Source: Massalongia carnosa (taxonomy: Eukaryota). Taken from it: DNA of 64,000 nucleotides. The position numbers and the translations under genes are program-made. Location: contig OZ287085.1 in assembly GCA_965645245.1 (NCBI GenBank), positions 744,001 through 808,000 of the forward strand, written 5' to 3'. Positions 15,801 through 50,262 of this stretch are shown here, piece after piece. A model generated the notes under the pieces. It did not search any database. It worked only from the letters and a program-made list of their open reading frames with translations, and had not been told where the DNA came from. The number at the start of each line of letters is the position of its first letter. Position 1 is the first letter of the stretch.

Positions 15801-16362
15801 TGGTTAGCCTGAAACAGGGCCTTTGATTTAACCCTATTTCAGACGTTTTTCCCCTTCGTTTCAGCAGATTGTTGGTCGGCAGTTCAACGAAAATCGAAAA
15901 AACCCAAAATGGAATAGTGTATACGGTACCGGTAACCTTAAATTTCAAATGAACACCAAGAAGTTTTGTTGTCTCGAGGACAGGTTGTACAGTTACGCGA
16001 CAGTGATGATATTTTGTAAATAATTTTTGTGATAATAGATGAGATCTATGCGACAATTAAACCGAAGAAATATCGAAAATCGAGCGATTTTTGACGTTGT
16101 TGTTGGTGTTTTTCTGTTTTGTAGATTTTTTGGACGCGCTTTTTGGTGAAGGGGCGGACAGACCGCGAGGAAAACTCTGCAGGAGCAGTGGAAGAGCTCT
16201 CCTGTACCCAATTCTGTTTGGTTTTAGCTTCTGGTAGGCTCAAATGAATGAGAAGAATGAGGAGAATAAGTTGGGAAAGCTTCAGTATATCAAAATATAG
16301 GGTACCGATGTTTTGGAGGTTGACTTTTGGGCGCTCTCCGACTGAACAGGTGTGGATAATGT
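12871..16362 (-). mobile_element. LINE-A 5' half (variant gamma): 5'UTR, ORF1, APE domain; no 3' end
   Basis: ORF2 start MAGQHSL at 13861; ORF1 pieces 13861-15435 with CINCQKFGHKHYQC; 5'UTR 15436-16362 homologous to other copies. Confidence 0.88.
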
Positions 16363-20400: not shown

Positions 20401-23400
20401 TTTGATAAATCTTCCTCATTATCGTCAATAAATGGGTTTTTTGTATACATTGCTGACATAAATGCATCGCATTTGTCATTAAACTGTACATTTAGCTTGT
20501 TTTCATGTGGAATCGGCGGTATTTTTTCGAATATGCGCCGTTTAGTGTATTTATACGCGGTAAATACATCTTTATTTGCTGCATTTTCAAGAAAAGTAAA
20601 CTATGTTTGTTGTTTTGCTTTTCGAATTGCATGAAAATACTCGATTCGACTATGTTTAAACGTCCGACGACTAAAATCGGACGGATAATTCTTCCATTCT
20701 CGACGATGTCTGCACATGGTTTTTCGAAGTTCAGTTAAATCTTGCGACCACCAATTTTTCGATTTTGCATAAATTTTCGTTTTCGGAATAAACATTTCAG
20801 CCGCGTTATTGATAACGTTTTGCAAATATATCGCTGATTCGTCGAATTGATGATTATTCAATAAACTTTGAACTTGTGATTCATAGATGGTTGAATTATC
20901 GTCTAGATACTTCGCGAATTTATTCCAATCGGCTTTATTGCAATTGTATTTATTCGATAATGCGGTTGCATGTGACGTCAAGTTTTTGAAAGATGCGATT
21001 AGTTCAAATCGGATGACTTCATGATCAGAACCTGTGACTGCGTTTTCATCGATTGACCAATTTGTGATTGCATATTCGATTTTAGAATTTGCAAAAGTTA
21101 AATCAATAACAGATGAAGAACTTCCAGAATGGGCGTAGTATGTACATAAGTCAGGTGTGTTTATCAAACTACACCTGTTTAATTTCAACCATTTGACACG
21201 ATTTTCTGATCGAATTCCTTGTTGAATTTTCGAATTCCACCAGTTATGATGTGCATTGAAATCTCCACAGATGACGAATTGATCAGTTGATTTAGGTTGT
21301 AATTGGATTAAAAGTCGATCGATCGTGTATGTTTCTCCATCAATTTGACTTTTTTCGTTATAAATATTGAAAATCTGCACTTTTCGAACTTCATCAATTG
21401 TAACTTCAATAATTTGCATATCGGAATCGTCAATAAGATCCGTTCTAGGCGTGCATTGCAGTTTGAAATTGCCATTTGTGATAAATATAGCTACTCTCGA
21501 GCTATATGTCGCTATTTTTGGCATAATACATGTAAATGACGGATGTGATATTGTTTTTTGATCTCGTGTCCATGGTTCCTGAAACAAAACAATATCAATT
21601 TAATTTGATAAAGCATATTCCAAAAACGATATCATTGCATTCGTTGACTTTGCACAATTATGTTGAATAAATTTAACATTTTGTGTATTTTCGATGTTTG
21701 TCAACGAATGCTGTCCTGCCATTACAAAGCGTCTAATTCGTCAGTCGATTTTCGAACATTTAACGATATAACCATTTCACAATTTTCATCATTTGATTGA
21801 TGATTCTTGTTGCAATTCGCGCATTTGACGACGACATTTGCACAAGCAATTTTTGACTTGCATGTTGTGCATTCATGATTGCGTGTTTCATGGTTTTGCG
21901 CACATATGCTGCATTTCGCTTGACTTTTGCATTGATAATGCTTGTGTCCAAATTTTTGACAAATAATGCGTTGTGTGTTTGGACGAACGGAGGTAAATAT
22001 TTCCGTGTCACAATGTCGGCCCGCGATATTGACTCCTTTTAACGCGTTCATGGCTATATTTCGATCTTTGAATGTCAAAACAACTGATGATTTGATCTTG
22101 TTATGACGATCACGTGCTAGCCATCTGGGAACATCGCATAATTGCATGTTCGAATTGAACTTTTGAATTTCGTCTTGCAAATATTGCATGTTTTCATCAA
22201 ATGTTGCAATATTTACACCGTGTGCGACGACTTTGAACCACGATTCGTCCTTTCGAACTGTTCGTGGGTCGAATAAATGCTCCCATATTGATTTATTGTT
22301 CAATAAATCTTCAGCAGTGTTATCAGGACTAGTAGTCAGAACGATATTTTGACCTGTTTTGGGCTTTTCGACCGTGTTAACAACTATAGTCAATTTCGCG
22401 TCTTTAAAAAGCGAATTTATTTGGTTCCGAAGCAACAGTGAATCGATATCGCCGATTTGAGCTTTCAGTGTGATTATCAATCGTCGAGATTTGATCGCCT
22501 TGAAATCGTCAGTATTATCGAATTTGTTCGCATTCGAATTATTGTTGTTGTTCTTGTTAGTTGTTTTGGATCGAGGAACGGTAGTCCAATTTTCGGAATT
22601 GACAGTCGCTTTTCCGAGCATTTGGCTCCATGTTCTAGCTGTATCGTTGACCTGCGGCCCTGGGACTCAGGCGGTTTCGCTCCGAATTTCTGGGTTGACG
22701 TTTTTAGTCAAATTCGAATTTCCATTTGAATTTCCCTTCGATTTTGTCTGGACAGGATGCACCGATTGTCTCTTTGTTTCTGGAATTTGGCTAGTTTGTT
22801 CTAGCACCCTATTCAATTTCCAATCAATCATTTCTAACGTTGCTTTTGGCTTAATCGATTTCTTTGCCAGTAGAGAATTGACGTGATCGATGACCATAGC
22901 CGTTTCGGGGTTTTGATCTATTACGAATGACTCTAATAATGCATTTTTTGCCGTATTCAATAGTTGAATCGATTTTGATCGATTGATGACTTCTTGACTT
23001 TCAATCGAATGTTCGTCAAATGTTCGTATTTTGTTGCGTTTAATTGGTGGACTCAGTCTAATATCAGAATTCAATGATGGCATGGGCAGCTTGGTACTGA
23101 ATTCACCAGATGGCGCGACAAAAGGTTTCGTTTTTGGGGTGGGTGTGGACGGTGCGGACGAAAATTCTCGCGTTTGGTCCATGGCCTCCGTGGAGTTTGG
23201 TCCATGGCCTCCGTGGATTCTACGGTTAGGGGGTTGCTCCCAATTATCGCTACCGAAGATGGCGTGGGGGAGTCGGTTCGGGTGGGGCACGGGGGAGTAC
23301 TCGGGGGGACCCATAGATGTTGTGGAGGGGCGCCTGGAGGAGGAGTTGTTGGTATCAATCGATTTGGTCTATGACCTATCTGGTTAAATCTTCGATTGAG

Positions 23401-24309
23401 CATAGTGTTTTTGCATTTGCAATATTCCTTTTATCGCCACCAAATAATTTATTCTGACTTTCCCCGGACGTACTAGTCAGAATAGAATTTACACCTGTTT
23501 GTTTACTGGTCAAATGACTCTTTCTTTCCTATCCCTATTTATTTGACTATAACGCGTCAAATAAATCCTAATCGGGTTAAAATAGACCGTTCCTCGCTAA
23601 GGCAGTAAATCTTATTTAACCCTTTACCAGACACTACAATAGGTAAAAATAATGAAAGTTTTTTTTTGTGCTTTTTTCAATAAAGATAAATTTTAATGCA
23701 ATGTAAGACAATAGGAGACTTCCTATTCTGATTAATCTGAAACAGGACCTTTGGTATAATCCTATTCCAGACGTTTTTCCCCTTTTTTTCAGTGATCTAT
23801 TGACCGGCCGTTCAACGAAGATCTATAAAGCCGAAAATGGAATTTGCAAAAATTATACGTGAAATATGCTATGAAAATTTGTGCTTGCGGAAGTTCCCGT
23901 AACCTTAAATGAGGAATGAACTTTAGAAGACTCTGACGTCGCGACAGTTGTGTACAGTCCCGCGAGAGTAGACAATTTTTGTGAATAATTTTTATAGTAA
24001 TAATTGAAGGTCATGCGACAACAGAACAGAAGAAAACAAGAAAAAAGAGCGATTTTTGGTGAGGTTGTTGGTATTTGTTGTTTTTTCCAACTTCTAGAGC
24101 GCGCTTTATCACGTCGGTCGCGTGCGACCTGCAGAAAAACTCTGCTGGAGCTTTGCTAGAGCTCTCCTACACTCAATCTGAGAGCGTTTTTGCTCTGGAG
24201 GAGCGCAAATGACTGAGAAATAGAAGCTCAATTGACTATTAAAGTTATAGTGTATCAAAAGTTGCGGTACTTGTGTTTCTTGTTATTGTTCTGTAGACTG
24301 GTCCTAATC
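17473..24309 (-). mobile_element. Full-length LINE-A (variant beta), ~6.8 kb, inactivated by stops and frameshifts
   Basis: 15-bp TSD tgattacgatatcta (17458-17472 and 24310-24324); A-rich tail; ORF2 pieces 17708-21722; ORF1 pieces 21722-23403; ~900-nt 5'UTR. Confidence 0.95.
23405..23830 (-). promoter_or_regulatory. Conserved multi-hairpin leader directly upstream of the LINE-A ORF1 ATG
   Basis: Inverted repeats 23450-23459/23475-23484, 23537-23547/23556-23566, 23574-23580/23616-23622. Homologs at ~15440-15900, ~25235-25670, 43386-43630. Confidence 0.6.
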
Positions 24310-26140
24310 TGATTACGATATCTAACTTCGCGTTGCTGAATTGCGCGTTGATTTTATCCCGAAGTTTCAATGAGTTGATATCGCCGATTTGAATTTTTGG
24401 TGTAATTATCAGTCGTCTGAGTTTGATTGCATTTAATTCGTCGGTTTTGTCGAATTTGTTCGAGGTTTGACTCGAATTTTTCGATCTGGAAACAAACAGT
24501 GGTCCAATTTTCGGAATTCGCAGTTGCTTTTCCAAGCATTTGACTCCAGGGTAGAGGCGTGTTATTGACCTTTGTACTCGTAACCCCGGCGGTTTCCTTT
24601 CGTGCGTTCGTGTTGACGACATTATTTGGATTTTCAGTCGTATTGACTTGTTGAACCCGAGTCGATTTTCGCGTTGTTTCTGAGGTTCGATTACTAGTCT
24701 GATCAAGTACCTTGTCTAATTTTCAATACATCATATCTAGTTTTGTTTTTATATTAATTGGTTGATTTGTCAATAAGGAATTGACATTATCAATGACTAT
24801 TGCTGTTTCTGGATTTTGATATAAGACAAATGACTTCAATAACGCGGTTTTAGCCGTTTTGAGTAATCCAATCGATTGTGCTCGATTGATTGCTTCTTGG
24901 CTTTCCTCTACTCGTTCGTCGAATGTTTTTCGTTTGTTACGTTTGATAGGCGGGATTAATTCTATATTAGAATTTAACGATGGCATGGGTAGATTGGTAG
25001 TAAATTGTCCAGATGGGAATTTGGTTGCTTTTGGGGTCGGCGTAGTCGGGGCGGACGAATATTCATATATTGATCCATAGGCTCGTCAAGTACAGGCGAT
25101 TTTTCTATAAGTCCTACTGACGAGAGCCACGGAGATTCCATTTGGGGAGGGTTTTGAGGAGTGCTCAGGGGTGTTCCCGGGGAGGCTCTCGATATAATTC
25201 GTCGAGTCCTAGGGAGTACCGGATTGATCATGATTTAATAAATAAATCGATATGTCTTTTCAATATCCCTTTTATCAACACCAAATAATTTATTCGTATA
25301 TTCCCCGGACGTACTAATCAGAATAGAAATTTACACCAATTTACCGGTCTAACGACTCTTGCTTTCCTATCCCTATTTATATGACAATAACTCGTCAAAT
25401 AAATCCTAATCGGGTTAAAATAGACCGTTCCTCGCTTAGGCAGTAAATCTTATTTAACCCTTTACCAGACACTACAATATTTGAAAATAATGAAAGTTTT
25501 TTTTTGCTTTTTTGCGATAAAAATAGATCTAAGGCAAGGTAAGATAATAAGAGACTTCCTGTTCTGATTAATCTGAAATAGGATCTTTGGTATAATCCTA
25601 TTCCAGACGTTTTTCCCCTTCTTTTCAGTGATCTGTTGACCGGCCGTTCAATGGAGATCAATAAAGCCTAAAATGGTATATGCAGAAATTATACGTGTGA
25701 TATATGGGGAAATTTGTGCTTGCGGAAGTTCACGTAACCTTAAATGAGAAATGAACTTCAAAAAAGTTGGTCGTCGCGACAGTGTTGTACAGTACCGCGA
25801 TAGTAGATATTTTTTGTAGATAATTCTTGTAGTTATAATTGAGGGTAATGCGACAACAGAACAGAAGAAAGTGAGAAAAAAGAGCGATTTTTGGTGATAT
25901 TGTTGGTATTTGTTGTTTTTTTATAACTTCTTGAGCAAGCTTTATCGCGTCTGTCGCGTGCGACCAGCAGAAAATCTCTGCTGGAGCTTTGCTAGAGCTC
26001 TCCTACACTCAATCTGAGTCCGTTTTTGCTCTGGAGGAGCCCAAATAACTGAGAAAGAGATGTTCAATTGACTGTGAAAGTTATAGAGTATCAAAAGTTG
26101 CGGTACTTGTGTTTCGATAGGTGGTCTTTGGTGCTTCCTC

Positions 26141-26345
26141 CCAAGAAGTTTTGTTGTCTCGAAAACAGGCTGTACAGTTACGCGACAGTGATGATAGTTT
26201 GTAGATAATTTTTGTGATAATAGATGAGATCTATGCGACAATTAAACCGAAAAAATATCGAAATTGGAGTGATTTTTGACGTTTTTGTTGGTGTTTTTGT
26301 GTTTTGTAGCTTTTTTGGACGCACTTTTTGGTGAAGGGGCGGACT
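26141..26345 (-). mobile_element. LINE-A gamma 5'UTR fragment
   Basis: Near-identical to ~15957-16160 (ccaagaagttttgttgtctc...gaaggggcggac). Confidence 0.85.
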
Positions 26346-27590
26346 CGACCGTGTTAACAACGATAGTCAACTTCGCGTCTTTAAAAAGCGAATTGATTTG
26401 GTTTCGAAGCAACAGTACGTCGATAACGCCGATTTAAGCTTTCGGTGTGATTATCAACCGTTGAGATTTGATCGTCTTGAAATCTTCAGTATTGTCGAAT
26501 TTGTTCGCATTCGAATTGTTGATGTGGTTTTTGGTTGTTTTTTTTTTGGATCGAGGAACGGTAGTCCAATTTTCGGAATTGATTGTCGCTTCTCCGAGAA
26601 TTTGGCTCCATGTTCTTGTTGTTTCATTGACATGCGGCCCCGCGACCAAAGCGGTTCCGCTCCGAATTGTTGGATTGATATTTTTATTCAAATTCGAATT
26701 TCCATTTGAATTTCCATTTGAACATGTCTGTATAGGTCGCTCCGATTGTCTCTTTGCTTCTGGAATTTTGCTAGTATATTGTAGAACCCTATTCAATTTC
26801 CAATCAATCATTTCTAACGTTGCTTTAGGCTTGATCAATTTCTTTGCCAGCAGAAAATTGACGTGATCAATGACATTAGCCGTTTCGGGGTTTTGATCTA
26901 GAACGAATGACTCCAATAATGCATTTTTTGCCGTATTCAATAGTTGAATCGATTTTGTTCGAGTGATGTCTTCTTGACTTTCAATCGAATGTTCGTCAAA
27001 TGTTCGTCTTTTGTTGCGTTTAATTGGTGGACTCAGTCGAATATCAGAATTCAATGATGGCATGGGCAGATAAGTACTGTATTCACCAGATGGCGCGACA
27101 AAAGATTCGCTTTTAGGGTAGGTGTAGACGGTACGGACGAAAACCCTCGCTTTGGTCCATGGCCTCCGCGGACTCTACGGTTAGGGTAGTGCTACCAATT
27201 ATCGCTAACGTAATAGCCACCCATTCGGGCCAGCCACCCAATCGGGCCACCCCTCAAAATCTAGTAGCCGAATATTAATCTTTTCCTTCCAATCCACCAC
27301 TATCACTCATTTATCGCTAAACTATATATAAAATGCCTAAAAACATACCCATACATGACTCTGCTACTAGATTACACTTTGCTATTGAAAAAATACGCAA
27401 AAACCCGGGCATTTTGCCGCGGGAGATAGCGCGAATTTACAGAGTTCCCTGATCGAGCTTACAGGCCAGTTTTCAAGACAGACGTGACGCAAAACCCCCC
27501 ATGAGGCCACTCAAAGACTATCAGTAGAAGAAGAACAGGGCTTAATCACGTGGATAGATCGGATGACTGCATGGGGCTCGCCACCTAGTA

Positions 27591-29447
27591 ACGTAATTTA
27601 CCCTCATTCGGGTCAGCCCCCCATTCGGGTCACCCCATTGAAATCTAGCGACCGAAAAAAATTCTATCCTTTTCATCCACCACCACTATATATTTATCTA
27701 TTAATTGTAGATAAAATATCTATTAATAGGCCTACGATTGACTCTGCTACTACTAGAATACAGTTGGCTATCGAAGAATTAGCCAAAATTCCGGGCATTC
27801 GCAGCGGGAAATAGCGCGCCTTTAAGGAGTTCCTCAGTCGACTTTACAGGCCCGGCTCAAAGGCAGGTGGGCCGCAAAATACTATCATCAGGCCTCCCAA
27901 AGGCTATCCGTCTATAAAGAACAGGCTCTAATTGATTGGATAGAGCGGATAACCTCATGGGGTTGGCCGCCTCGTATCCAACATTTTGAAGGCATGGCCA
28001 GAAGTCTCCTGAACGCCAAAGGGGACAAAAATCCGTTGGGTCGTCATTGGTATCAAAAGTTCCTGAAAAGGCATCCCGATTTCAAAATCAAATACAATAG
28101 AAACCTCGATCAATCCAGAAAGGACGCTGGTAGTCCCGAAATTTTGCGTGATTGGTTCGAATTGTACACGACTACCTTGGTCAAATATGGGATTTCAGAT
28201 GAAGATACTTACAACATGGATAAAATAGGCTTTTCTATGGGCATCGCAGACAGTTCGAAGGTCATAATCAAAGGAATAAAAACACAATTCAATTTGCATC
28301 CGGGAAATAGGGACTGGGTTTCTCTTATTAAGTGCATATCATCCCGCGGAACAGTTCTTCCGGCTTATATCATTTTCCAAGATGCCAAAGTTAAACCTGC
28401 ATGGTATGATGCCATGGAGACGAAGGCAGATACCGTTCGGGTCAGTCACAATGGTTGGACGGATGCAGAGATAGGCCTTCATTGCTTGTAAACGGTATTC
28501 AATAAGCATACAAAACCTGAACGAGGCATGTATAGGATGCTAATTATAGATAGCCATGAGAGTCACGTCTCCATTCCTTTTATGGAGTTTTATGCCCAAG
28601 AGAAAATCATACCCCTTTGTTTGCCACCACATTCAACTCATTTCTTGCAGCCCCTAGATGTCGGTATTTTTGGCCCTTTATCTAAGGCCTATAAACAACT
28701 CGTTACCAGCCAATCACGTTACGGGCTGTGACTATTTCTAAGCTAGATTTTATGCGCTTTATTCAGGTGGCTAGGAAACAGGCTATTACTACTACTAACA
28801 TCATGAGTGCATGGCGGGGGGCAGGCCTCATCCTTTTTAATCCAGGGCATGTTCTAGGCAAGTTGCCTAGGCCTATCACACCTCCTACCTATCCCAATAC
28901 TGTCACCGATGCCCCCCAAACGGAGCAGCGAATCCAGGAGGTCAGCGATGCCCTTATATCCTATATAACTCTATCTCTTCGCGCGCATGTTGAGTTGCTT
29001 AAAACAACTGCTTCGAATGCAGTCGCTGATAGGGTTATTCTAAGACATACCAATCAAGAACTGATTGATAAAAAGGCTCAGGGACGTCAAAAAGCTTCCA
29101 GAAAGGGGGGTGTTAAAGCGAGGGTGCTGACTGTGGGTGAAGGGCAGGCGATTGCGGAGGAAAAACAGAGGAAGGAAAAAGCATTGGCCAAACAAAAGGA
29201 ACGGTACCATGCTTTCAATTGTAAAGTAAAGTTTGCAAAGGCCGTATGGAAGGAAATGCAGATGGATAGTGATATTTTTAGTTAGTTTTGGGGATGGTGG
29301 AAGCAATGTAATATTTTTCTTTGGTATAGGGCGAAGGTTTTTTTTTTGGTGGGGTGACCCGATTGGGTCGCTGACCCGAATGGGGGGCTGACCCGAATGG
29401 GGGGGTGACCCGAATGGGGGGCTGACCCGAATGAGGGTAAATTACGA
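27591..29447 (+). mobile_element. Fot1/pogo DNA transposon, inner copy (~1.86 kb)
   Basis: TIRs ACGTAATTTACCCTCATTCGGGTCAGCCCC / GGGGCTGACCCGAATGAGGGTAAATTACGA; TA at 27589-27590 and 29448-29449; extra subterminal repeats at the right end. Confidence 0.93.
27755..29285 (+). pseudogene. pogo/Fot1 DDD transposase (HTH + DDE_1), disrupted
   Basis: YNMDKIGF, LIIDSHESH, PPHSTHFLQPLDVGIFGPL motifs in ORFs 27994-28491, 28528-28731, 28728-29285. Confidence 0.9.
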
Positions 29448-29610
29448 TATTCAATACCTTGAGGGCATGACCAAAAGTCTGCTGGAAGCAAAAGGGGACT
29501 CAAAACCCCTAGGACATCATTGGTATAAAACTATCATGAATAGACATCCCCAATTCAAAACTAAATTTAAATGAAATTTTGATCAATCCAGAAAAGACGC
29601 AAGTCATCCC

Positions 29611-29780: not shown

Positions 29781-30539
29781 ATCCCAAAATCCTGAAGGAA
29801 TGGTTTGAACTGTACATGACACCCGAGCAAAGTGTGTAGTCGCAGATAAAGATATTTACAATATGGATGAAAAGGGTTTACCCATGGGCATTGCGGATAG
29901 TTCTAAAGTGATAGTCAAGAGGGAAACAACCTCATCAATATCATAAGTGCATGGCGGGGGGCAGATCTCATTCCATACAATCCCGAGCATGTTTTAGGCA
30001 AACTGCCTAGATCTATCATTCCTTTACCTCGCAACATCGTTACCACTACCCTCACAACGAATAAACGCATTCAGGTAGCTAACTGTGGGTGAGGAGCTGG
30101 CTAAGATCGAGGAGAAACATCAAAAAGAGGAGGCATTAGCCAGAGAACAGGAGCGATATCATGCTTTAAATGGTAAAGTGAAGTTCGCAAAGGCCGTCTG
30201 GAAAGAAATGCGTATAGATAGTGATAATTTTAGTTAATTTTGGGGATGGTAGAAGCATCGTGGTGATGTTGTTATCCTTTTGGTGGAAGGGGATAGTTGG
30301 CAAGGATATTTTTGATGGGGTGGCCCGATTGGGGTAGCTGGCCCGAATGGTTGGCTAATACGTTACCGAAGATGGCGCGGGGGAGTCGGTTGGAGGGGGG
30401 CCCGGGGGCGTAGTCGGGGGGACCCATCGATGTTTCGGAAATAACAATATCCCATTTAATAGGCCCGGCCTTTAAAATAAAATCGAGGAAAACAGAGAGT
30501 CACAAAACACATAGTGATCAATCACACGTTGTAAAAAGT

Positions 30540-30772
30540 ACACAGTAACAAAAAGCACAGTTACAAACATACAGTCACAAAAACAGAGTCACAAAACACA
30601 GTCACAAAAACACAGTCACAAAAAACACAGTCACAAAAAACAAAGTCACAAAAAACACAGTCACAAAAAACACAGTCACAAAAAACACAGTCACAAAAAA
30701 AACAGTCACAAAAAACACAGTCACAAAAAACACAGTCACAAAAAACACAGTCACAAAAAACACAGTCACAAA
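30540..30772 (+). repeat. 13-15 bp minisatellite (cacagtcacaaaaaa)n within NC
   Basis: Direct tandem repeat; shorter versions at ~33003-33110 and ~59860-59935. Confidence 0.95.
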
Positions 30773-30879
30773 TCAATAAAACATTCCTGTGAAGGGGGTT
30801 CTGCGGGGACTCGTTAAGACAGATCTGCAAACCGTTAATATCGTAGTACATATTTTTAGAGGTTCAAGTCCTTTCTAGC

Positions 30880-31867
30880 TTTTTTTAATTTTTTTTATTT
30901 ATTAAGTGTATTCAACCTAAGGTTATGACACTAAATTATTTTAGGATATATTTCTATATTACAAATAAATCAACCCTTTATAACCTATCTATGTATCGTC
31001 AATTTTCCCCCATTTTTACTCCGTGTTAGTAACAACCTTTAGTAATCGAAGAATATCGATTTTACAATTTGACAATTTGTCTTTGTAAGTTCTTGAATGT
31101 TTCAGCATAAATCGTTTCTGATTTTACTGTTCGATATCTCCCCAACCTTCAGTTTCGAAAATATAGTCATCAAGCTGACCTAGAATCCATTTTCTAGTCG
31201 CGATTTTGTTATTGATAATAAATTTAATCAAAATAACATTTCCGATTTTTGTATTAAACAACATATTTAAGTTGATCGTAATATCGATATTTTGTTTCAT
31301 GCTTTAAATTTCATCGAAATAGTGAATAAAATTCAATAACAAGTGTTCTGGCGTTTGTTGTTGATTGCATCGATTTGTGCATTTTGACGAATTATAATCT
31401 TTCAATCGCTGTAAAAATATGATCGAAAAAAGCCGTGTCCGAATTTTAATTGCATAATAGTAGCAAATATCAATTTGGAACAGTTGTTTGATAAATAATA
31501 AAATCTCGATATGCCAGGTTTCATTTCGAATTTCTCGTAGTATTTGCCTTTTGATTTGCATTGTTGCTATTGATTCCTCCATGTGGTTAGCATATTTTGA
31601 TTTATTTGATCTTTTACATAATCAAATGTTATCGCCGAGGACTCGACTAGGATTTGATTATGGCCCGTCTTTGCTTTTTTGTCTGAAATTTCGTTTTCGG
31701 TAATATATGAATGATTCGGAACCCATTGCAAAATCACCTGATAATTGCTTTCAAATAAGAGTTTTGCGAGCTTTCGAATTTGTCTTGCGAAAATATGATT
31801 TGTCAAGTTCTGAATTTCGTTTATCGCGTTTATACTATCAGAAAAAATCCGAATCGTTTTTTCTAAG
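30880..31867 (-). mobile_element. 5'-truncated LINE-A 3' end (~1 kb), partner of NC copy 1
   Basis: Poly(T) at 30880, 3'UTR, RNaseH C-terminus and CCHC remnants. Confidence 0.92.
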
Positions 31868-33721
31868 CTAAGAATGATAAAATAGAGTTGACATCTCATT
31901 CGTGAAGTCTCTATCCCAGTTTTCGTTCATCTCACTGGTGCGTTTTACGGCCCAAGATTATTGATGAATTCTACGATTGGGGTGAACGACGTCACTTTCG
32001 CCCAGGTCAAACCCAGTTTACTCCTTAATCATATATCAAGGGCGAGTCTAGCCGTAGCCCATGCGCCGGGGAACCGACGGGGTCTCGTTACGAGCGAGAT
32101 GGACATTCCCTGCTCCGACATGCGCATACTGTCCTCTCGGGCTATGCAGACGGTCTCCGTACGGTGGCCGCCATTGCATTCCACGCCTCACGGGTTTTTT
32201 ACGCCTACTTCGCGTTATTCATAAAGGTCTCCCGTTTATGAACCGACCATATCTCGCAGGGATTTCGACTACTATGCTCCTGACCAAGCAGTATAGTATC
32301 GATTTTCCGTCCCTACTAACCAAAACGAGTCGAGGATAACTCGGAGGGGTGCTCGTTGGAAATTCGTCTATTAGCTCAGGGCCTAGACCGTTATCAATTA
32401 ACGGGTTCCTCGTATATTGCCCTCTTCTTGTCCCAAGGGTGTCCTATTTGATGACTAGGTTGCCTCTACTATCCCCGGTACGACTCCGGTTCGGGCCGTG
32501 TTGCTCATGGTAGCCATCAATCGGATGGTTTTCATAACCCAAATCCCTTGTATCGTGTAGGGTGTGACCCTACACTATGTGTCTATATGTTTTATTTCAT
32601 TCAGCCGGAAGGCTCCTTGTTGTAGACGAAGGAGACCCGTGTGACAGATATAGCTGACCCGTTTCGTACGTCTTTAGCTCTTAGCCGTTAACTGCATGAA
32701 AGGACTTGAACCTTTAAGAGTATGACTGAACGTTGTTAACGAGGTCTATGAAAATCGTATTAACGAGGTCTTCGAGAACAATATTAACGAAGTTCCGCTG
32801 AACTATTTTCATTCGTTTTGTGATCTATCGAGGTCTACCCGTGTCAAATCCACACTATACCCCTGTCAAAATGCATCATTTTCAGCTGATGACTGCAAGA
32901 AAGGATTTGAACTTCTAAAAATATGTACTCCGATATTAACGGGGTACAGATCTGTCTTAACGAGCCCCCGCAGAACCCCCTTCATAGGGAGATGTTATTG
33001 ATTTGTGAGTGTGTTTTTTGTGACTGTGTATTTTGTGACTGTATGTTTTTTGACTTTGTGTTTGTGACTGTATGTTTGTGAATTTGTGCTTTGTGACTGT
33101 GTGCTTTGTACAATATATGAATGATGAGTATATGTTTTGTGACTATGTGATTTCCTCGATTTTATTTAACAGGCCGGGCCTATTAAATGGGATATTGTTA
33201 TTCTGCTCCGAGATGGAGTTTTCTTGAGGTGACAGCATTCGCCCCGGTGCTTTTACGCGTTCTATTGATCCCAGCTGATGACTGCGTGGGGAGACTTGAA
33301 CTTTCAGGAGCTAGAACGCGTGTCGATTGTGCTCGGGTAGGGGATGATGCGGCTCCTTTGGTCCACATCTTCTTCCAGCTGATGAATGCATGAAGGGACT
33401 TGAACACTTATAAGCATGGTGCAGGGACGCGCGCATTCTACCCCCCGGCGGTTGGCCTTCGTATCCTCTTCCGTAAGTACGTCTGCGACGCGTGTGAACG
33501 CGTTAAATTAGCATTGTTTTGATGCGAAAAGATAGGAAATTATCTATGTTTGTCAGTCGCTCCACGGTGAGGCCTTTGTCGTCTCCGTGGTAAGGACCGA
33601 TGGTGTAGAAGGAGGAGGGCCGATAGTGTAGAAGTTGGAGGACCGATGGTGTAGAAGGAGGAGGACCGATAGTGTAGAAGGAGGAAGACCGATGTTGTAG
33701 AAGGAGGAGGACCGATAATGT
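31868..33721 (-). mobile_element. Non-coding element NC copy 1 (1.85 kb, uninterrupted)
   Basis: Homologous to 39408-40412 (rc), 58717-61226 and 63819-64000; no conserved ORF. 13-bp TSD agtcctttctagc (30867-30879, 33722-33734) encloses NC plus the LINE fragment. Confidence 0.88.
33594..33721. repeat. 23-bp minisatellite ggaccgatggtgtagaaggagga, ~5.5 units, at the 5' end of NC copy 1
   Basis: Direct tandem repeat. Confidence 0.95.
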
Positions 33722-33777
33722 AGTCCTTTCTAGCAGTTATCAGCTGAAAATAATGTATTTTGACACGGGCATGGTGT

Positions 33778-36700
33778 TTTATTTTTATTTATTCATTAAG
33801 TGTATTCAACCTAAGGTTATGACACTAAACTATTTTAGGATATGTTTCTATATTACAAATAAATCAACCCTTTATAACCCATCTATGTACTGTCAATTTT
33901 TCCCCATTTTTACTCCGTGTTAGTAACAACCTATAGTAATCGAAGAATATCGATTTTAAAATTTGTCTTTGTAAGTTCGTGAATGTTTCAGCATAAATCG
34001 TTTCTGATTTTACTGTTCGATCTCTCCCCAACCTCCAGTTTCGAAAATCTCGTCATCAAGCTGACCTAGTATCCATTTTCTTGTCGCGATTTTGTTATTG
34101 ACAATGAATTTAATCAAAATGTCATTTCCGATTTTTGTATTAAACAACATATTCAAGTTGATGGTAGTATCGATATTTTGTTTCATGTTTTGAATTTCAT
34201 CGAAATAGTTAGTGAATGCAATTCAATAACAAGTGTTCTGGCGTTTGTCGTTGATTGCATCGATTTGTGCATTTTGACGAATTATAATCTTTCAATCGCT
34301 GTAAAAAGATCGAAAATAGCCGTGTCCGAATTTTAATTGCATAATAGTAGCAAATATCAATTTGGAACAGTTGTTTGATAAATAATAAAATCTCGATATG
34401 CCAGGTTTCATTTCGAATTTCTCGTAGTATTTGCCTTTTGATTTGCATTGTTGCCATTGATTCGTCTATGTGGTTAGCATATTTTGATTTATTTGATCTT
34501 TTACATAATCAAATGTTATCGCCGAGGACTCGACTAGGATTTGATTATGGCCCGTCTTTGCTATTTTGTCTGCAATTTCGTTTTCGGTAATATTTGAATG
34601 ACTCGGAACCCATTGCAAAATCACCTGAAAATTGCTTTCAAATAAGATTTTTGCGAGCTTTCGAATTTGTCTGGCGAAAATATGATTTGTCAAGTTCTGA
34701 ATTTCGTTTATCGCGTTTATACTATCAGAAAAAATCCAAATCGTTTTTTCTAAGTTCGATAAAATATTAGTATTCGACAATTTATAGACCCATTTCATTG
34801 CTTGTAAAATCGCATGCAGTTCAGCATTTTTAATGCTTGACTTTTTGCTTAATTTTCAGCTTTTCGAAATCGTATGATACTTGATCAGACAATCTTTTTC
34901 GATAAATCGATTAAAATTATTGATAATATTACTCCAATTCCTTATAACTGGCGCAAATGTGACTGCAGACGTTGCAAATTCGATTTTCGATCCATCTGTA
35001 TAAAGTAAAACTCGGGATTTATCGGAGTTCATTGATTTAATTTTGGATAAGGTCGAATAATAACTTGATTTAGCAGATTCCTTTGTATTTTCGATTTGAA
35101 ATTTGATTTTGCAAGGCGATTTCCAAGGTTTAATAAAATGATTTGATTGTTCAAATTCATCAGTTTTGTGAACTATATCGGAAACGGAATGAAGAACGCG
35201 AATAAGCTGACTAGGATGTCGTTTATTTGTTTGTTTTTCGTCTTCGTTCCATTCGGCATATTTGTTGTTCCATAAACTTGTGTCAAAACCGATATTTTCG
35301 AATTTTATCGAATATGTGTTTGGAATTCTTTAACAAATAGGGTTATTTTCGGCAATCTTCACTAATCGAATTGCGTATTTTTGATTTTTCATTAATAATC
35401 GAAGTTTAACTGGTAAAACATGTGATTCAATTTCCATCGCCTGAATAGGTGTGGTTTCGAAAGTTCCTAAAATCTTTCGAATCATTTGATTTTGTAGGTT
35501 CTGAAATAGTTTTTCATATTTCTTTTGACCATTATACCAAATTTCTGAGCCGTAGTCCGAAATAGGAATAATGCATGACATATAGAGCTATCTGCATGCG
35601 GTCGGTTTCAGACCCCATTCGGATTTCATCAAATTCTGAATTGCAAAAAACGATCGATTCGCAGAAGAGATCCGCGTTTCGACGTGTTTTTTGAAATTTA
35701 GTTTTCTGTCTAACCAGACGCCCAACCATTTGACTACATTTTTCGGTTCTAGTACTGTCCCGTTTGGTAATTCCAATGTGTCTTTCGATACATTTCTTGT
35801 CTTTTCGAAGTGAATCAGCTCGGATTTATCGTCATCAAATTTGACATTATTCGATGCGGCCCAATCAAAGGCCGTTTTGACTATGATTTCGATTTCTTTG
35901 CAATTCTGTTTTGCAGTTTTATTTTCGACATATATTGCAACATCGTCAATAAAACTGGGAGAATGTGCATTGAATTTCATTCGTATTTTCGGAAACAAGT
36001 GACGAATGTAAATCAGAAATAGAATAGGCGAGATTGGTGAGCCTTGTGGAATTCCTGATTCGACATAATATGTTTTGCTTAAATTTTCATCAAATATCAA
36101 ATTGATCGATCGCTTTGTCATGAAATGCTTGACCCATTGAATTATTATGCGAGATAATTTCAGCTTTTTCATAACATTTAGCAGTTGATTAATCGAGATA
36201 AAGTCAAATGCGCCTTTTACATCGAGTAATAAACATGATAAGACGTTTTTATTTCTATTTGCAATTTCAATATCATGAACAACGTTCATTACTGCGTCAA
36301 TTGCAGAATGATTTTTGCGTCCGCCCATCTGTTCGATATCGAGTAAATTCGAATTTTCGCCGAAGTAGGCTAGTCGATTTGCAACGATTTTCTCAGCAAT
36401 TTTACTAAGACAATTTAATAATGTGATAATTCGATATGATTTTGGAAACGAATAGTCCGATTTATTAGGTTTTTTCAGAACGGCACCGAGTCCTGTCCGC
36501 CAGCATAACGGGTGATAACCGATTCGAATGAATTTCGAATAAATCATGAAAAACACGTTTTTCAACGATTGAAACGATTTTTGAACAATTGTAAAATTGA
36601 TTGCATCAGGTCCACATGCTTTCTTCGGATTAAATAAACTAATCGCATTTTTCAACTCGTTTTCGGTCAAATCTGGCCAATTATCATCATTTACGCTGTC

Positions 36701-39407
36701 TTGATTTGATAAATCTTCCTCATTATCGTCAATAAATGGGTTTTTTGTATACATTGCTGACACAAATGCATCGCATTTGTCATCAAACTGAACATTTAGC
36801 TTGTTTTCATGTAGAATCGGCGGTATTTTTCGAATATTCGCGGTTTAGTGTATTTATACGCGGTAAATACATCTTTATTTGCTGCATTTTCAAGAAAGTC
36901 AACCATGTTTGTTGTTTTGCTTTTCGAATTGCATGAAAATACTCGATTCGACTATGTTTAAACGTCCGATGACTAAAATCGGACGGATAATTCTTCCATT
37001 CTCGACGATGTCTGCACATGGTTTTTCGAAGTTCAGTTAAATCATGCGACCACCAATTTTTCGATTTTGCACAAATTTTCGTTTTCGGAATAAACATTTC
37101 AGCCGCGTTTTTGATAACGTTTTGCAAATATATCGCTGATTCGTCGAATTGATGATTATTCAATAAACTTTGAACTTGTGATTCGTAGATGGTTGAATTT
37201 TCGTCTAGATACTTCGCGAATTTATTCCAATCAGCTTTATTGCAATTGTATTTATTCGATAATGCGGTTGCATGTGACGTCAAGTTTTTGAAAGATGCGA
37301 TTAGTTCAAATCGGATGACTTCATGATCAGAACCTGTGACTGCGTTTTCATCGATTGACCAATTTGTAATTGCATTTTCGATTTTAGAATTTGCAAAAGT
37401 TAAATCAATAAAGATGAAGAACTTCCAGAATGGGCGTAGTATGTACATAAGTCAGGTGTGTTTATCAAGCTACACCTGTTTAATTTCAACCATTTGACAA
37501 GATTTTCTGATCGAATTGCTTGTTGAATTTTCGAATTCCACCAGTTATGATGTGCATTGAAATCTCCACAGATGACGAATTGATCAGTTGATTTTGGTTG
37601 TAATTGGATTAAAAGTCGATCGATCGTGTATGTTTCTCGATCACTTTGACTTTTTTCGTTATAAATATTGAAAATCTGCACTTTTCGAACTTCATAAATT
37701 GTAATTTCAATAATTTGCATATCGGAATCGTCAATAAGATCCGTTCTAGGCGTGCATTGCAGTTTGGAATTGCCACTTGTGACAAATATAGCTACTCTCG
37801 AGCGATAAGTCGCTATTTTTGGCATAATACATGTAAATGACGGATGTGATATTGTTTTTTGATCTCGTGTCCATGGTTCCTGAAACAAAACAATATCAAT
37901 TTGATTTGATAAAGCATATTCCAAACACGATATCATTGCATTCGTTGACTTTGCACAATTATGTTGAATAAATTTAACATTTTGTGTATTTTCGATGTTT
38001 GTCAACGAATGCTGTCCTGCCATTACAAAGCGGCTAATTCGTCGGTCGATTTTCGAACATTTAACGATATAACTATTTCACAATTTTCATCATTGGATTG
38101 ATGATTCTTGTTGCAATTCGCGCATTTGACGACGGCGTGTGCACAAGCAATTTTTGACTTGCATGTTGTGCATTCATGATTGCGTGTTTCATGGTTTTGC
38201 GCACATATGCTGCATTTCGCTTGACTTTTGCATTGATAATGCTTGTGTCCAAATTTTTGACAATTAATGCATTGTGTGTTTGGACGAACGGAGGTAAATA
38301 TTTCCGTGTCACAATGTCGGCCCGCGATATTGACTCCTTTTAACGCGTTCAAGGCCATATTTCGATCATTGAATGTCAAAACAACGGATGATTTGATCTT
38401 GTTATGACGATCACGTGCTAGACATCTGGGAACATCGCATAATTGCATGTTCGAATTGAACTTTTGAATTTCGTCTTGCAAATATTGCATGTTTTCATCA
38501 AATGTTGCAATATTTACACCGTGTGCGACGACTTTGAACCACGATTCGTCATTTCGAACTGTTCGTGGGTCGAATAAATGCTCCCATATTGATTCATTGT
38601 TCAATAAATCTTCAGCAGTGTTATCAGGACTAGTAGTCAGAACGATGTTTCGACCCGTTTTGGACTTTTCGACCGTGTTAACAACGATAGTCAATTTCGC
38701 GTCTTTAAAAAGCGAATTGATTTGGTTTCGAAGCAACAGTGAATCGATATCGCCGATTTGAGCTTTCGGTGTGATTATCAATCGTCGAGATTTGATCGCC
38801 TTGAAATCGTCAGTATTATCGAATTTGTTCGCATTCGAATTATTGTTGTTGTTCTTGTTTGTTTTTTTGGATCGAGGAACGGTAGTCCAATTTTCGGAAT
38901 TGACAGTCGCTTTTCCGAGCATTTGGCTCCATGTTCTAGCTGTATCGTTGACCTGCGGCCCTGGGACTCCGGCGGTTTCGCTCCGAATTTCTGGGTTGAC
39001 GTTATGAGTCAAATTCGAATTTCCATTTGAATTTCCCTTCGATTTTGTCTGTATAGGATGCACCGATTGTCTCTTTGTTTCTGGAATTTGGCTAGTTTGT
39101 TCTAGCACCCTATTCAATTTCCAATCAATCATTTCTAACGTTGCTTTTGGCTTGATCGATTTCTTTGCCAGTAGAGAATTGACGTGATCGATGACCACAG
39201 CCGTTTCGGGGTTTTGATCTATTACGAATGACTCTAATAATGCATTTTTTGCCGTATTCAATAGTTGAATCGATTTTGATCGATTTATGACTTCTTGACT
39301 CTCAATCGAATGTTCGTCAAATTTTCGTCTTTTGTTGCGTTTAATTGGTGGACTCAGTCGAATATCAGTATTCAATGATGGCATGGGCAGATTGGTACTG
39401 AATTCAC
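33778..39407 (-). mobile_element. 5'-truncated LINE-A (variant beta), 5.6 kb
   Basis: 14-bp TSD cacgggcatggtgt (33764-33777, 39408-39421); ORF1 open 38023-39407; ORF2 pieces 37400-38023, 36807-37448, 35588-36763 and downstream. Confidence 0.95.
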
Positions 39408-40412
39408 CACGGGCATGGTGTGGATTTGACACGGGTAGACCTCGATGGATCACGAAACGAATGAAAAGATTTCAGCGGAATTTCTTTAATATTGTTCACG
39501 TAGACCTCGTTAATAAGATTTTCATAGACCTCGTTAACAACGTTCGGTCATACTCTTAAAGGTTCAAGTGCTTTCATGCAGTCATCGGCTGAGAGCTTAA
39601 AACGTACGACACGGGTCAGATGTGTCTAGCAAACGGGTCTCCTTCGTCTACAACACGGAGCCCTCCGGCTGAAAGAAATAAAACATATATACACATATTG
39701 TGGGGTCACAACCTACACGATACAAGGGATTTGGGTTATGAAAACCATCCGACTGATAGCTACCGTGAGCAACACGGCCCGAACCGGAGTCGTACCGGGG
39801 AAGGTAGAGGCAACCTAGTCATCAAATAGGACACCCTCGGGACAAGAAGGGGGCAATATACGAGGAACCAGTTAATTGATAACAGTCTAGGCCCTGAGCT
39901 AATAGACGAATTTTCAACGAGCACCCCTCCGAGTTGTCCTCGACTCGTTTTGGTTAGTAGGGACGGAAAATCGATACTATACTGCATGGTCAGGAGCATA
40001 GTGGTCGAAATCCCTGCGAGACATTGTCGGTTCATAAACGGGAGACCTTTATGAATAACGCGAAGTAGGCGTAAAAAACCCGTGGCGTGGTATGCAATGG
40101 CGGCCACCGTACGGAGACCGTCTGCATAGCCCGAGAGGACAGTATACCTATGTCGGTGAATCTAGAACAGGGAATGTCTATCTCGCTCGTAACGAGACCC
40201 CGTCGCTTCGCCGGCGCATGGGCTACGGCTAGACTCGCCCTTGATATATGCTTAAGGAGTAAACTGGGTTTGACCTGGGCGAAAGGGACGTCGTTTACCC
40301 CAATCGTAGAATTCATCAATAGTCTTGGGCCGTAAAACGCACCAGTGAGATGAAAGAAAACTGTGATAGAGACTTCACGAATGAGATATCAACTCTATTT
40401 TATCATTCTTTG

Positions 40413-43385
40413 CCCGTTCACGGACGATAATATTGAAGATTTAACGAATCAAGACAACGAAAATGACGACAATTGGCCGAATTTAACCGAAAATGAATTG
40501 CAAAATGCGATTAGTTTGTTTAATCCAAAGAAATCATGTAGACCTGATGCAATCTATTTCACAATAGTTCAAAAATCGTTACAACTATTGAAAAACGTGT
40601 TTTTTACAATTTATTCTAAATTTTTACAAATCGGTTATCACCCTTTATGCTGGCGAACAGGACTCGGTGCAGTTTTAAAAAAACCTAATAAAACAGACTA
40701 CTCGCTGCTAAAACCATATCGAATTATTACATTACTAAATTGTCTTGGTAAAATTGCGGAGAAAATAGTTGCAAATCGACTAGCCTACATTGGCGAAAAT
40801 TCGAGCTTGTTAGATACCGAACAAATAGGCGGACGCAAAGATCATTCTGCAATCGACGCAGTTATTAAACGTCGTAACTGATATCGAAATCGGAAACCGA
40901 AACAAAAAGGTTTTATCATGTCTATTACTCGATTTCAAAGGAGTATTTGACTTTCTTTCGCTTAAGCAATTGCTAAATGTCATGAAAAAGTTGTATTTAT
41001 CTCGCATAGTTATTCAATAGGTCAAGCATTTTATGACAAAACGATCGATCAATTTGATATTCGATGAATACAAAAGCAAAACGTACTATATCGAATCTGG
41101 AATTCCATAAGGTTCACCCATTTCGCCAATTCTATTTCTGATTTATATTCGTTACTTATTCCGAAAATACGAATGAAATTCAATGCTCATTCACCTAGCT
41201 TTATAGACGATGTTGCAATATATGTTGAAAATAAAACTGCCAAACAGAATTGTAAAGAAATCGAAATTATCATTAAAACAGCTTTTCATTGGGCCGCAAC
41301 GAATAATGTCAAATTTGATAACGACAAATCTGAGTTGATTTACATTGAAAAATCAAGAAATATATCAGAAGACAAAGTGCAATTACCAAACGGGAAAATA
41401 CTAGAACCGAAAAATTCTTTCAAATGGTTAGGAGTCTGGTTAGACCGAAACTAAATTACAAAAAACACGTCGAAACGCGAATATCTTCTGCAAATCGATC
41501 GTTTTTCGCAATTCAAAATTTGATGAAGTCTGAATAGTGACTAAAACCAACTGCATGCAGACAGCTCTATTTGTCATGCATTATTCCTATTTCGGACTAT
41601 GGCTCAGAAATCTGGTATAATTGTCAAAGAAATATAAAAAGCTATTTCAGAATCTGCAAAATTGAATGATTCGAAAGATTTTAGGCACATTCAAAACAAC
41701 GCCTGTTCATGCGATGGAAATTGAATCGCATATTTTACCAGCCAAGCTACGATTGTTGATAAAAAAAAAATACGCAATTCGATTATTGAAGATTGCCGAA
41801 AATAATCCTATTTGTCAAATAATTCCCAGAACCTATTCGGTGAAATTTGAAAACATCGGTTTTGACACTAGTTTATGGAACAACAGATATGCTGAATGGA
41901 ACGAAGACGAGAAAAAATCGAGTAAACCTCATCCTAGTCAGCTTATCCGTATTCTTCATTCCGTTTCGGATATAGTTCACAAAACTGATGAATTCGAATC
42001 TGTAAATAATTTCACCAAACCATGGAAGCCGTCTTGTAAAATAAAGTTCCAAATCGAAAGATCAAAAGAAACAGTAAAGTCCAGTTATTATTCGACTTTA
42101 TCAAAAATTCAATCAATAAACGCCGATAATTCGCGAGTGTTACTCTATACCGATGTATCAAAAACCGAGTTTTCAACTACCGCTGTCACGTTTGCACTAA
42201 TTACGCGAAATTGGAAAAATATCACCGATAACTTCAATCGTTTTATCGAAAAAGATTGTCTACTCAAAAATCATACTATTTCGAAAAGCTGGAAATTAAA
42301 CAAACAGTCAAGCCTTAAAAACGCTGAACTTTATGCTATACTACAACTAATGAAATGGGCATACAAATTGACAATTGCGAGTATTCTCTCCAATTTAGAA
42401 AAAACGATTTGGATTTTTTCCGATAGCATAAACGCGATAAGCGAAATTCAGAACTTGACAAATCATACTTACGCAAAACAAATTCGAAAATTCTCGACAT
42501 GCTTATTCGGAAACAATTATTAGGTGGTTCTACAATTGATTCCTAGTCATTCAAAAATCGTCGAAAATGAAATTGCACATAAAGAAGCAAAAGCGGGACA
42601 AAGTCGAATCCAAGTCGAGTCTTCGATAATAACATTTGATTATGTAAAGGGTCAAGTAAATCGAAATATGTTAGCCACATAGGCGAATCAATTGCAACAA
42701 TGCAAGTCAAAAAGCGAATACTATGAGAAATTCGAAATGCTTCCGGACAAATCGAGTTTTTATTATCTGTCGAATAATTGTTCGAAATTGATATTTGCGA
42801 CTATTATGCAAATGAAATTTGGACACGGTTATTTTCGATCATATCTGCACCGATTAAAAGATTATAATTCGTCAAAATGCACAGGGCGCTGCAACGAACG
42901 TCAAACGCCAGAACGCTTATTGATGATGTGCATACATTATTCCAATGAAATCCTAAACATGTAACAAAATATCGATACCACAATTACTTTAAAAATGTTG
43001 TTTAATACTAGGATCGGAAATAATATTTTTATTAAATTTATTGTTCATAACAAAATCGCGACTAGATAATGGATGCTAGGTCAGCTCAATAACGAAAATA
43101 TCGAAACGGGAGGTTGGGGAGAGGTTGGGGAGAGATCGAACAGTAAAATTTGAAATGGGTTTTGCTGGAATATTCACGAGCTTTACAAAAACAAATTGTA
43201 AAATCGATATTTCGATTACTAAAGGTTGTTACTAACACGTAGTAAAAATGGGGCAAAATTGACGATACATAGTTGGGTTATAAAGGTTTGATTTAATTTA
43301 TAAAATAAAAACATGTCTTAAAATAGTTTAGTGTCATAACCTTAGGTTGTATACACTTAATGAATAAATAAAAAAATTAAAAAAA
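40413..43385 (+). mobile_element. 5'-truncated, more diverged LINE-A (~3 kb), partner of NC copy 2
   Basis: RT and RNaseH remnants (40363-40881, 41173-41454, 41666-42523), 3'UTR and A-rich tail. Confidence 0.92.
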
Positions 43386-43673
43386 GACCGTTCCTCTCTA
43401 AGGCAGTAGGTCTGATTTAACCCTTTACCAGACACTACAATAGGTGAAAATAATAAAAGTTTTAGTTTGCTTTTTTCAATAAAGATAAATTTAATGCAAT
43501 GTAAGATAAGACGAGACTTTCAATTCTGATTAATCTGAAACTAGACCTTTGGTATAAACCTATTACAGACGTTTTTACCCTTCTTTTCAGTGATCTGTTG
43601 ACCGGCCGTTCAACGAAGATCGATAAAGCCACAAATGGAATATGAAAAAATTATCCGTGAAATATACTGTGAA
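43386..43673 (-). mobile_element. LINE-A beta 5'UTR fragment in inverted orientation
   Basis: Matches ~23585-23875 of the full-length beta copy. Confidence 0.85.
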
Positions 43674-50025: not shown

Positions 50026-50262
50026 TGTCGAAAGCCGATTAGTCAGTTGGCTGGTAGCACTACCTGCACTCGATCACGTGACCCTATGAAAATGCAGGGC
50101 TAGTGAAGGTGCCTAATACGCTAGCTCCGAGTAAGCTACGGAAGCTAAATCACTAGCTTAGAAGATTAGGGCACCTCAACTGTATATAGAAGGCTTCGCC
50201 CACCTAGCTAGAGAATCAAGCAATCTACTACCTATGCTTCATTTACCTATGTGCTTTTGATA
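50026..50262 (+). repeat. copia 5' LTR
   Basis: Direct repeat of 55863-56099, about 21 mismatches by manual count. Confidence 0.95.

Follow-up and report, generated by a model that had tools for sequence, protein, structure and literature searches.

Composition of the window

The DNA analyzed here is a window of 64 kb from contig OZ287085.1 of assembly GCA_965645245.1 (Massalongia carnosa, positions 744,001 to 808,000 of the forward strand), and coordinates are counted from its first letter. The window is a nest of retroelements in a fungus-type genome. The majority of its sequence belongs to LINE-A, an AT-rich long interspersed nuclear element (LINE) of ~5.6 kb or more, which is present in many copies on both strands and contains endonuclease and reverse transcriptase (RT) domains (Pfam), with RNase H in close family members. 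Joined to 3′ parts of LINE-A is a non-coding sequence, here called NC, with a G+C content of 46.7% vs about 33% in LINE-A. These NC-LINE chimeras are the subject of the present report. NC was found four times when 30867–33734 was compared with the window by BLAST: as copies 1–3, each within a chimera of the same number, and as a fragment. Its sense strand is the minus strand in copies 1 and 3 and the plus strand in copy 2.

Chimera 1 consists of a 988-nt LINE-A 3′ fragment with an A-rich tail (30880–31867, minus strand, 94% identity to longer LINE-A 3′ ends) and the 1854-nt NC copy 1 (31868–33721, minus strand), the 3′ end of which is at 31868.

Chimera 2 contains about 1.33 kb of the NC unit, 5′-truncated and divided into three plus-strand pieces, an arrangement that is new relative to the preliminary description of this DNA. 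Piece a (30435–30879) starts at ~30435 and equals 33202–32895 of NC copy 1, piece b (33722–33777) lies between the chimera 1 insertion and a LINE-A insertion, and piece c (39408–40412) runs to the NC end ...CTTTG at 40412. The division is due to the later insertion of chimera 1 and of a near-full-length LINE-A (33777–39409, minus strand), which is accompanied by a ~14-nt duplication of NC sequence. The empty site of this LINE-A was seen in a contig of sequencing run X1, where 33763 is joined to 39408 and 14 letters fit both sides. A contig of run X4 departs from the window sequence at 30434. The LINE-A 3′ fragment of chimera 2 (40413–43386, plus strand, 2974 nt) belongs to a divergent subfamily (79–83% identity to other copies).

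In chimera 3, the LINE-A 3′ fragment (about 2722 nt) is split by a Copia-type element between LINE-A reference positions 5609 and 5612. The last 110 nt with the tail are at 49914–50023 (minus strand, reference 5612–5722), and the remainder, at 56105–58716 (minus strand), is joined to NC. The 3′ part of NC copy 3 (58717–59932, minus strand) is separated from the 5′ part (60503–61223, minus strand) by a later 5′-truncated LINE-A of 570 nt (59933–60502, minus strand) with its own 11-nt duplication, ttactgtgtac (59922–59932 and 60503–60513). The whole chimera is located in a host LINE-A on the plus strand (61227–62932, with the other half at 49506–49913).

The fourth NC fragment (63823–64000, minus strand) equals 33118–33295 of NC copy 1, is cut by the end of the window, and adjoins a plus-strand LINE-A tail. 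Beside it, at 63521–63819, the 3′-terminal ~102 nt of a LINE-A on the plus strand, A-rich tail included, form 2.9 tandem repeats (97% identity).

Joints between NC and LINE-A

All three NC copies have one terminus, ...AACTCTATTTTATCATTCTT(A/T)G, at their joins with LINE-A. The end falls on the same NC base in 3/3 chimeras, as the preliminary description had reported (CTTAG at 31868 and 58717, CTTTG at 40412). LINE-A is entered at a different point each time: at reference position ~4747 in chimera 1 (window 31867), ~2762 in chimera 2 (window 40413), and 2933 in chimera 3 (window 58716). In all window chimeras, NC and LINE-A are in the same (sense) orientation and the LINE part reaches the LINE-A tail, and no poly(A) or target duplication was found at the NC-LINE join (0/3 window joins). 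The earlier account of same-orientation joins at different LINE-A points, followed by ~1.0, ~3.0, and ~2.7 kb of LINE sequence, was thus confirmed. NC is present at the truncation point in 3/9 LINE-A 3′ ends of the window.

Contigs from sequencing runs were aligned to window positions 30400–39500, and NC was covered by many distinct contigs. A fourth breakpoint was obtained from run X5, which is labelled as a different organism. In its contig of 3220 nt (depth 2), the NC terminus (31867) is followed in sense by LINE-A from window-equivalent 36415 (reference ~3086) to the LINE-A tail; the contig contains the LINE-A equivalent of 33784–36415 and has 7 unaligned letters before NC. Two more contigs of the same run extend NC to about 33665–33685. 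The 20-nt NC terminus was also compared with metagenome and genome contigs, and the 6 and 7 loci found were all chance matches of 20–21 letters; one of them reached 33 nt (88%) on extension, and no other NC sequence was recognized at these loci.

No microhomology was found at the window joints. In chimera 1, CTTAG stands both at the end of NC and at the start of the LINE part; the pentamer is present twice, not once, and was therefore not used as microhomology, so that the joining is end-to-end. In 3/3 window joins, the breakpoint is immediately preceded by AA in the LINE, as was checked in three other LINE-A copies. The frequency of AA in LINE-A is 0.166, and three AA would be expected by chance with a probability of about 0.005. 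This context bears on splicing, in which an NC exon would be spliced in cis or trans onto cryptic LINE-A acceptors before retrotransposition. The pattern is compatible with one donor end and varying acceptors, and trans-splicing has been proposed for some L1 chimeras (bioRxiv 10.1101/2025.02.02.635956). Since AA, not the acceptor AG, precedes all three window joints, a canonical AG splice acceptor is excluded, and splicing is an extremely improbable origin of the chimeras.

At the breakpoints of chimeras 1 and 3, the adjoining LINE sequence on the 5′ side resembles the NC terminus and is one of its best matches within the entire LINE; equally high scores were reached at a fraction of 0.003–0.02 and 0.004–0.045 of positions, respectively, the ranges depending on word length. 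No such resemblance was seen at the breakpoints of chimera 2 (0.26–0.92) or run X5 (0.12–0.85). A shared motif might both stall the RT on LINE-A RNA and mark the NC end, which is no more than a lead at four junctions.

Integration of the chimeras

Every chimera is one integration of NC together with its LINE part. Chimera 1 is enclosed by an exact (13/13) target-site duplication, agtcctttctagc, with the identical left and right copies at 30867–30879 and 33722–33734. Its flanks are adjacent segments of NC copy 2 (NC 32895–33109 equals 30879–30663, and NC 32852–32905 equals 33777–33724), which overlap by 11 nt in copy-1 coordinates. The single duplication around LINE and NC that had been claimed for this copy is therefore exact and is accompanied by continuity of the target. 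Chimera 3 lies within a plus-strand LINE-A, the halves of which align as 49506–49914 (reference 3161–3569) and 61227–62932 (reference 3557–5264), with a 13-nt overlap in the reference. A degenerate repeat is present at about 49896–49913 and 61224–61239, in agreement with the degenerate duplication noted before at ~49902 and ~61227. In both cases, the two flanks adjoin each other where the target is present in uninterrupted form.

The target of chimera 2 is an antisense LINE-A 5′ region. Its left flank (30361–30434) has 88% identity to 23248–23321, and its right flank (43387–43673) has 89% identity to 23586–23875. Order and orientation of the two flanks are thus preserved in a second copy of the LINE-A 5′ region, to which they are collinear, and about 264 nt of that copy are missing between them. 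This gap is either a deletion of the target or a variant target.

Later LINE-A insertions in the window have their own duplications of 11–14 nt, and the same machinery therefore fits the chimeras. Since true secondary insertions have duplications of their own, the NC-LINE joins, which are without any, are unlike secondary insertions. Two DNA events per locus, NC and then an unrelated adjacent LINE-A, might be expected in so dense a nest, where later LINE-A insertions into NC do occur (33777–39409 and 59933–60502). However, the sole duplication or target continuity encloses both parts, and no duplication separates them. A DNA transposon or Helitron end at the NC terminus belongs to the same group of explanations: NC has no terminal inverted repeats, and its terminus is TTAG or TTTG, not CTRR, followed by C, C, and T, not always by T. 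Separate DNA events of either type have next to no probability. A Helitron was also rejected as a candidate on the grounds that the unit has no CTRR end and is bounded by a 13-nt duplication and an A-rich tail.

Sequence content of NC

The sense strand of NC copy 1 starts with a 23-nt tandem array (33593–33721). The array has 5.7 repeats in copy 1 and 10.3 in copy 3, where it forms the end of the 5′ part, and the 5′ ends of the two are in different phase. The 5′ end of the RNA seems to be in or at this array, because copies 1 and 3, as well as the two NC-extending contigs of run X5, end within it. An origin of the array from the 5′ end of LINE-A was tried and rejected (17/200 shuffles score as well on the sense strand, not significant).

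The middle of NC contains an A-rich 15-nt array, ACACAGTCACAAAAA (33002–33109 in copy 1). It varies from ~5 to ~16 copies between the NC copies (33002–33109, 59860–59935, 30540–30772, and 63823). This array received LINE-A insertions in 2/4 NC copies (59933–60502, and the LINE tail ending at ~63819), and is likely an insertion hot spot. In addition, NC has four copies of a module of 35–90 nt with the core GTTCAAGTCCYTTCNTGCAG, which is found 9 times in the window vs 0.04 expected. Eight of these are in NC copies, and the ninth, at 28631, is outside NC and has 3 mismatches. The 3′ part of NC, roughly 0.8 kb, is unique.

Single-copy relatives of both array units are present in the unique 3′ part, a 15-mer-like one at 32563–32593 and a 23-mer-like one at 32618–32639. 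They stand side by side (32563–32639), in the same order as in the arrays. Internal duplication may have enlarged NC.

By eye, the module (GTTCAAGTCC...) resembles the T-arm plus acceptor strand of a transfer RNA (tRNA). ARAGORN found no tRNA gene in NC, and the T-arm look is therefore a resemblance by eye only. The comparison with Rfam that had been proposed was run, and NC matched no tRNA, 5S, 7SL, U6, or other family at the gathering score or at E ≤ 1. At E ≤ 10 there was noise, including the best match (E = 1.2, a Streptococcus small RNA), and tRNA, 5S, and 7SL were still absent. No credible open reading frame (ORF) was found among the 21 stop-to-stop ORFs of 55 amino acids or more; the single Pfam match, GCV_H, was below threshold (17.4 bits vs a cut-off of 22.2) and was taken as noise. 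Terminal inverted or direct repeats were absent from NC. Its last 120 nt did not resemble the ends of LINE-A or of LINE-B, another LINE of the window (169 and 121 of 200 shuffles, respectively, scored as high). The statements that NC has no ORF, terminal inverted repeat, long terminal repeat (LTR), or LINE-derived tail agree with all these comparisons. Without a tRNA, 5S, or 7SL head and without a LINE-like tail, NC is not a classical short interspersed nuclear element (SINE), again as proposed.

The properties of the NC 3′ end also bear on read-through (3′ transduction). Here, a mobile NC with its own promoter would have landed in LINE-A in the sense orientation, and its transcripts would run through the flanking LINE-A to the LINE 3′ end and be mobilized by LINE-A, each junction stemming from a separate source locus. 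Same orientation, fixed NC end, variable LINE positions, and single integration are all accounted for in this way, and landing in LINE-A is likely, as LINE-A makes up most of the window. On the other side, no collinear LINE-A is present 5′ of NC in the three window chimeras or the fourth fragment. An NC inserted by a LINE should have a 3′ tail, which is missing at 3/3 joins, and NC has no LINE-like 3′ end for moving alone. Read-through is accordingly considered unlikely.

Divergence of NC and its LINE partners

Over the shared 3′ kilobase, NC identity is 92.6% between chimeras 1 and 2, 89.0% between 1 and 3, and 88.2% between 2 and 3. The corresponding values for the LINE parts are 81.1%, 91.0%, and 79.0%. 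The LINE part of chimera 2, at 79.0–81.1% to the others, therefore came from a different LINE-A subfamily. In run X5, the NC pieces differ from the window by 13/572, 26/605, and 32/620 letters and the LINE piece by 356/2628. These values are consistent with the unequal divergence of LINE partners that had been pointed out (92.6% for NC of chimeras 1 and 2 vs 81.1% for their LINE parts). To judge from the identities, the ages of NC and LINE are decoupled. Fusion events appear to recur, each chimera having its own LINE breakpoint and the partners coming from different LINE-A subfamilies.

LINEs can acquire new 5′ ends, and the chimeras could thus be one composite non-autonomous family, in which NC is a new 5′ module of LINE-A and internal deletions occurred later. 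The tandem arrays at the NC 5′ end are as in some composite elements. Against such a family, the deletions would all have to start at the same NC nucleotide (4/4 cases), and chimera 2 has a LINE part of a different subfamily (79–83%) while its NC is 92.6% identical to that of chimera 1. A composite family is very unlikely.

Formation of the chimeras

The 3′ end of an NC RNA was probably joined to 5′-truncated LINE-A at the RNA or cDNA (complementary DNA) level, and the product was then integrated by LINE-A. The anatomy of the chimeras, their single integration, their independent junctions, and the absence of coding or known-RNA features from NC were observed; the level of joining, NC as a free RNA, and the enzymatic step at the joint are inferred. 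NC would have been copied into DNA from a non-coding RNA without poly(A), about 1.85–1.95 kb long and with a fixed 3′ end. For the joint, either the LINE-A RT would stop part-way on LINE-A RNA and jump end-to-end onto the 3′ end of NC, or, ahead of reverse transcription, an RNA ligase would join NC to a fragment of LINE-A RNA. The fused NC and LINE-A 3′ part with its tail would then be integrated once by target-primed reverse transcription, giving target duplications of 11–14 nt. RT template switching onto a defined NC 3′ end had been put forward in the preliminary description. The fixed 3′ end and the chimera anatomy stand, and these data do not favour template switching over RNA ligation.

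Several points weigh against this formation pathway or narrow it. A template jump and prior RNA ligation fit the data alike, and the probability expressed above is for the two jointly. NC is present in 7 sequencing runs, 0/7 of which are on record as RNA, so that a free NC transcript is presumed. A LINE-free source locus of NC was not seen within the window and was not sought genome-wide. No target duplication was found at the flanks of chimera 2. NC is thermodynamically ordinary and shows no sign of special structure: the fold of its 3′ 833 nt compared with shuffles gave z = −1.45 (sense) and −1.67 (antisense), and its earlier description as a structured RNA was not borne out. The resemblance of 2/4 breakpoints to the NC terminus is unpredicted by current models and may be due to chance. 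At least four junctions were counted among the matches listed, and the genome-wide pattern lies beyond these.

A more specific proposal is that NC is a dedicated hitch-hiker RNA without a LINE-like tail of its own, spreading only by fresh fusion to LINE-A 3′ fragments in each generation. This is conceivable but doubtful. Such an RNA would be recruited efficiently to the LINE-A particle (3/9 LINE-A 3′ ends), possibly by way of a terminal motif (UAUUUUAUC...CUUAG) that would also mark RT stops on LINE-A RNA.

Comparison with known chimeric retroelements

The preliminary description likened the chimeras to U6-L1 and to the MINE elements of Magnaporthe, and the fixed passenger end, variable breakpoints, sense orientation, absence of poly(A), and single integration bear this out. 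In MINE, the full-length 1.1-kb non-coding WEIRD is fused to the LINE MGL truncated at 28 sites, with duplications of 10–20 bp and no microhomology (PMC2104539). No solo WEIRD was reported in the Magnaporthe genome, the breakpoint motif is GCC*A/U, and MINE was explained by template switching (PMC2104539). WEIRD had no similar sequence in other genomes, and both WEIRD and MINE are transcribed (PMC2104539).

The NC-LINE chimeras are like MINE in that the 3′ end of a non-coding passenger of ~1–2 kb is joined in the sense orientation to a 5′-truncated ascomycete LINE at many sites. In both, the whole unit is within duplications, extended homology is absent from most joints, and no solo copy of the passenger is seen. 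NC is the longer passenger, at 1.85 kb vs 1.1 kb for WEIRD, and differs from it in having internal repeats (the 23-mer array, the 15-mer array, and the four-fold module). The LINE breakpoints have the context AA* here (3/3), not the GCC*A/U of MINE, and 2/4 breakpoints here adjoin LINE sequence that resembles the passenger end. One copy here (chimera 2) is 5′-truncated in NC, and the chimeras are locally very frequent. The likeness is one of anatomy, NC being known from DNA alone, whereas WEIRD and MINE are transcribed.

Both template switching and RtcB ligation have been proposed for U6/L1 chimeras (bioRxiv 10.1101/2025.02.02.635956). Shared features are a passenger that ends at its native 3′ end, a sense join to a 5′-truncated LINE, and a single target duplication. 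By contrast, NC is not U6 or any Rfam family and is ~17 times longer, and the architecture of LINE-A is endonuclease-RT-RNase H, not of the L1 type. Mammalian U6/LINE-1 chimeric pseudogenes are reportedly the subject of Moldovan et al. 2019.

Like SINEs and SVA, NC is non-autonomous and needs a LINE 3′ end for mobilization, and it has tandem arrays as in SVA. The chimeras resemble the proposed first step of SINE birth, in which a foreign RNA gains a LINE tail. Compared with SINEs, including the tRNA-derived fungal ones, NC is far longer and has no RNA polymerase III head or LINE tail of its own, and the LINE part, 1–3 kb here, is different in every copy.

On structural grounds, the NC-LINE units classify as MINE-like chimeric retroelements in another ascomycete-type genome. 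By analogy, their formation would be of the same kind as that of MINE and U6/L1, with no categorically new mechanism. Comparisons with powdery-mildew elements (EG-R1, Egh24) had been suggested earlier and are probably off target, because, among named sequences, the LINE-A RT is closest to those of the lichen fungus Lasallia pustulata (51–53% identity) and one of the DNA runs containing NC is labelled lichen metagenome. The LINE relatives thus probably indicate lichen-forming ascomycetes, not powdery mildew.

Neighbouring elements

The element that splits the LINE part of chimera 3 is a Copia-type LTR retrotransposon (about 50024–56104, plus strand) with gag, integrase, and SH3 matches in Pfam. 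It is nested in the chimera and is not a component of it. Its insertion point is 110 nt before the end of the chimera 3 LINE part, and it contains a 27-nt tandem array of 11 copies (50884–51183).

LINE-B (2779–7760, minus strand) has an intact ORF1 (536 amino acids, weak zinc knuckle) and ORF2 (1124 amino acids, endonuclease and RT). Its G+C content of 44–48% is higher than that of LINE-A. It is nested within a LINE-A copy (7977–12647 and 1583–2523) and may still be active.

Remnants of a Tc5/pogo-like DDE transposon (HTH_Tnp_Tc5, DDE_1) are located at 27826–29285 (plus strand), with domain matches at 27826–28731. The remnant is unique in the window, and its coding sequence is broken by frame changes. 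Short G-rich repeats from its terminal region are also present at 29040–29530 and 30272–30440 (up to ~30360 beside the remnant).

A repeat of ~0.87 kb, R2, is present at 23411–24279, 25257–26115, and 15456–16254, and partly at 43387–43673, always directly 5′ of LINE-A 5′ regions. The R2 regions span 23411–27210 and 12868–16254 (minus-strand sense). Upstream of the LINE-A at 17474–23321, R2 and the initial ~0.75 kb of LINE-A make up about 2.5 tandem units. R2 could represent a 5′ untranslated region of LINE-A, long or monomer-like, or another passenger.

Significance

In genome annotation, each NC-LINE unit should be masked as one composite retroelement. In the literature searched, the fungal cases found were MINE/WEIRD of Magnaporthe only, and the nature of WEIRD is unsettled there. 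A second, independent fungal system offers a longer, repetitive passenger, a high local frequency of chimeras, and partners from several LINE subfamilies. It would allow asking whether the passengers are cellular RNAs or parasites, what determines their 3′ ends, and whether a sequence rule governs the breakpoints. If NC were indeed a hitch-hiker of LINE-A, it would represent a distinct strategy of non-autonomous retrotransposition, that is, an obligate chimera or a SINE born repeatedly. Chimeras of this type would show a LINE RT, or an RNA ligase, fusing unrelated RNAs, which is the proposed first step towards SINEs and new LINE 5′ ends.

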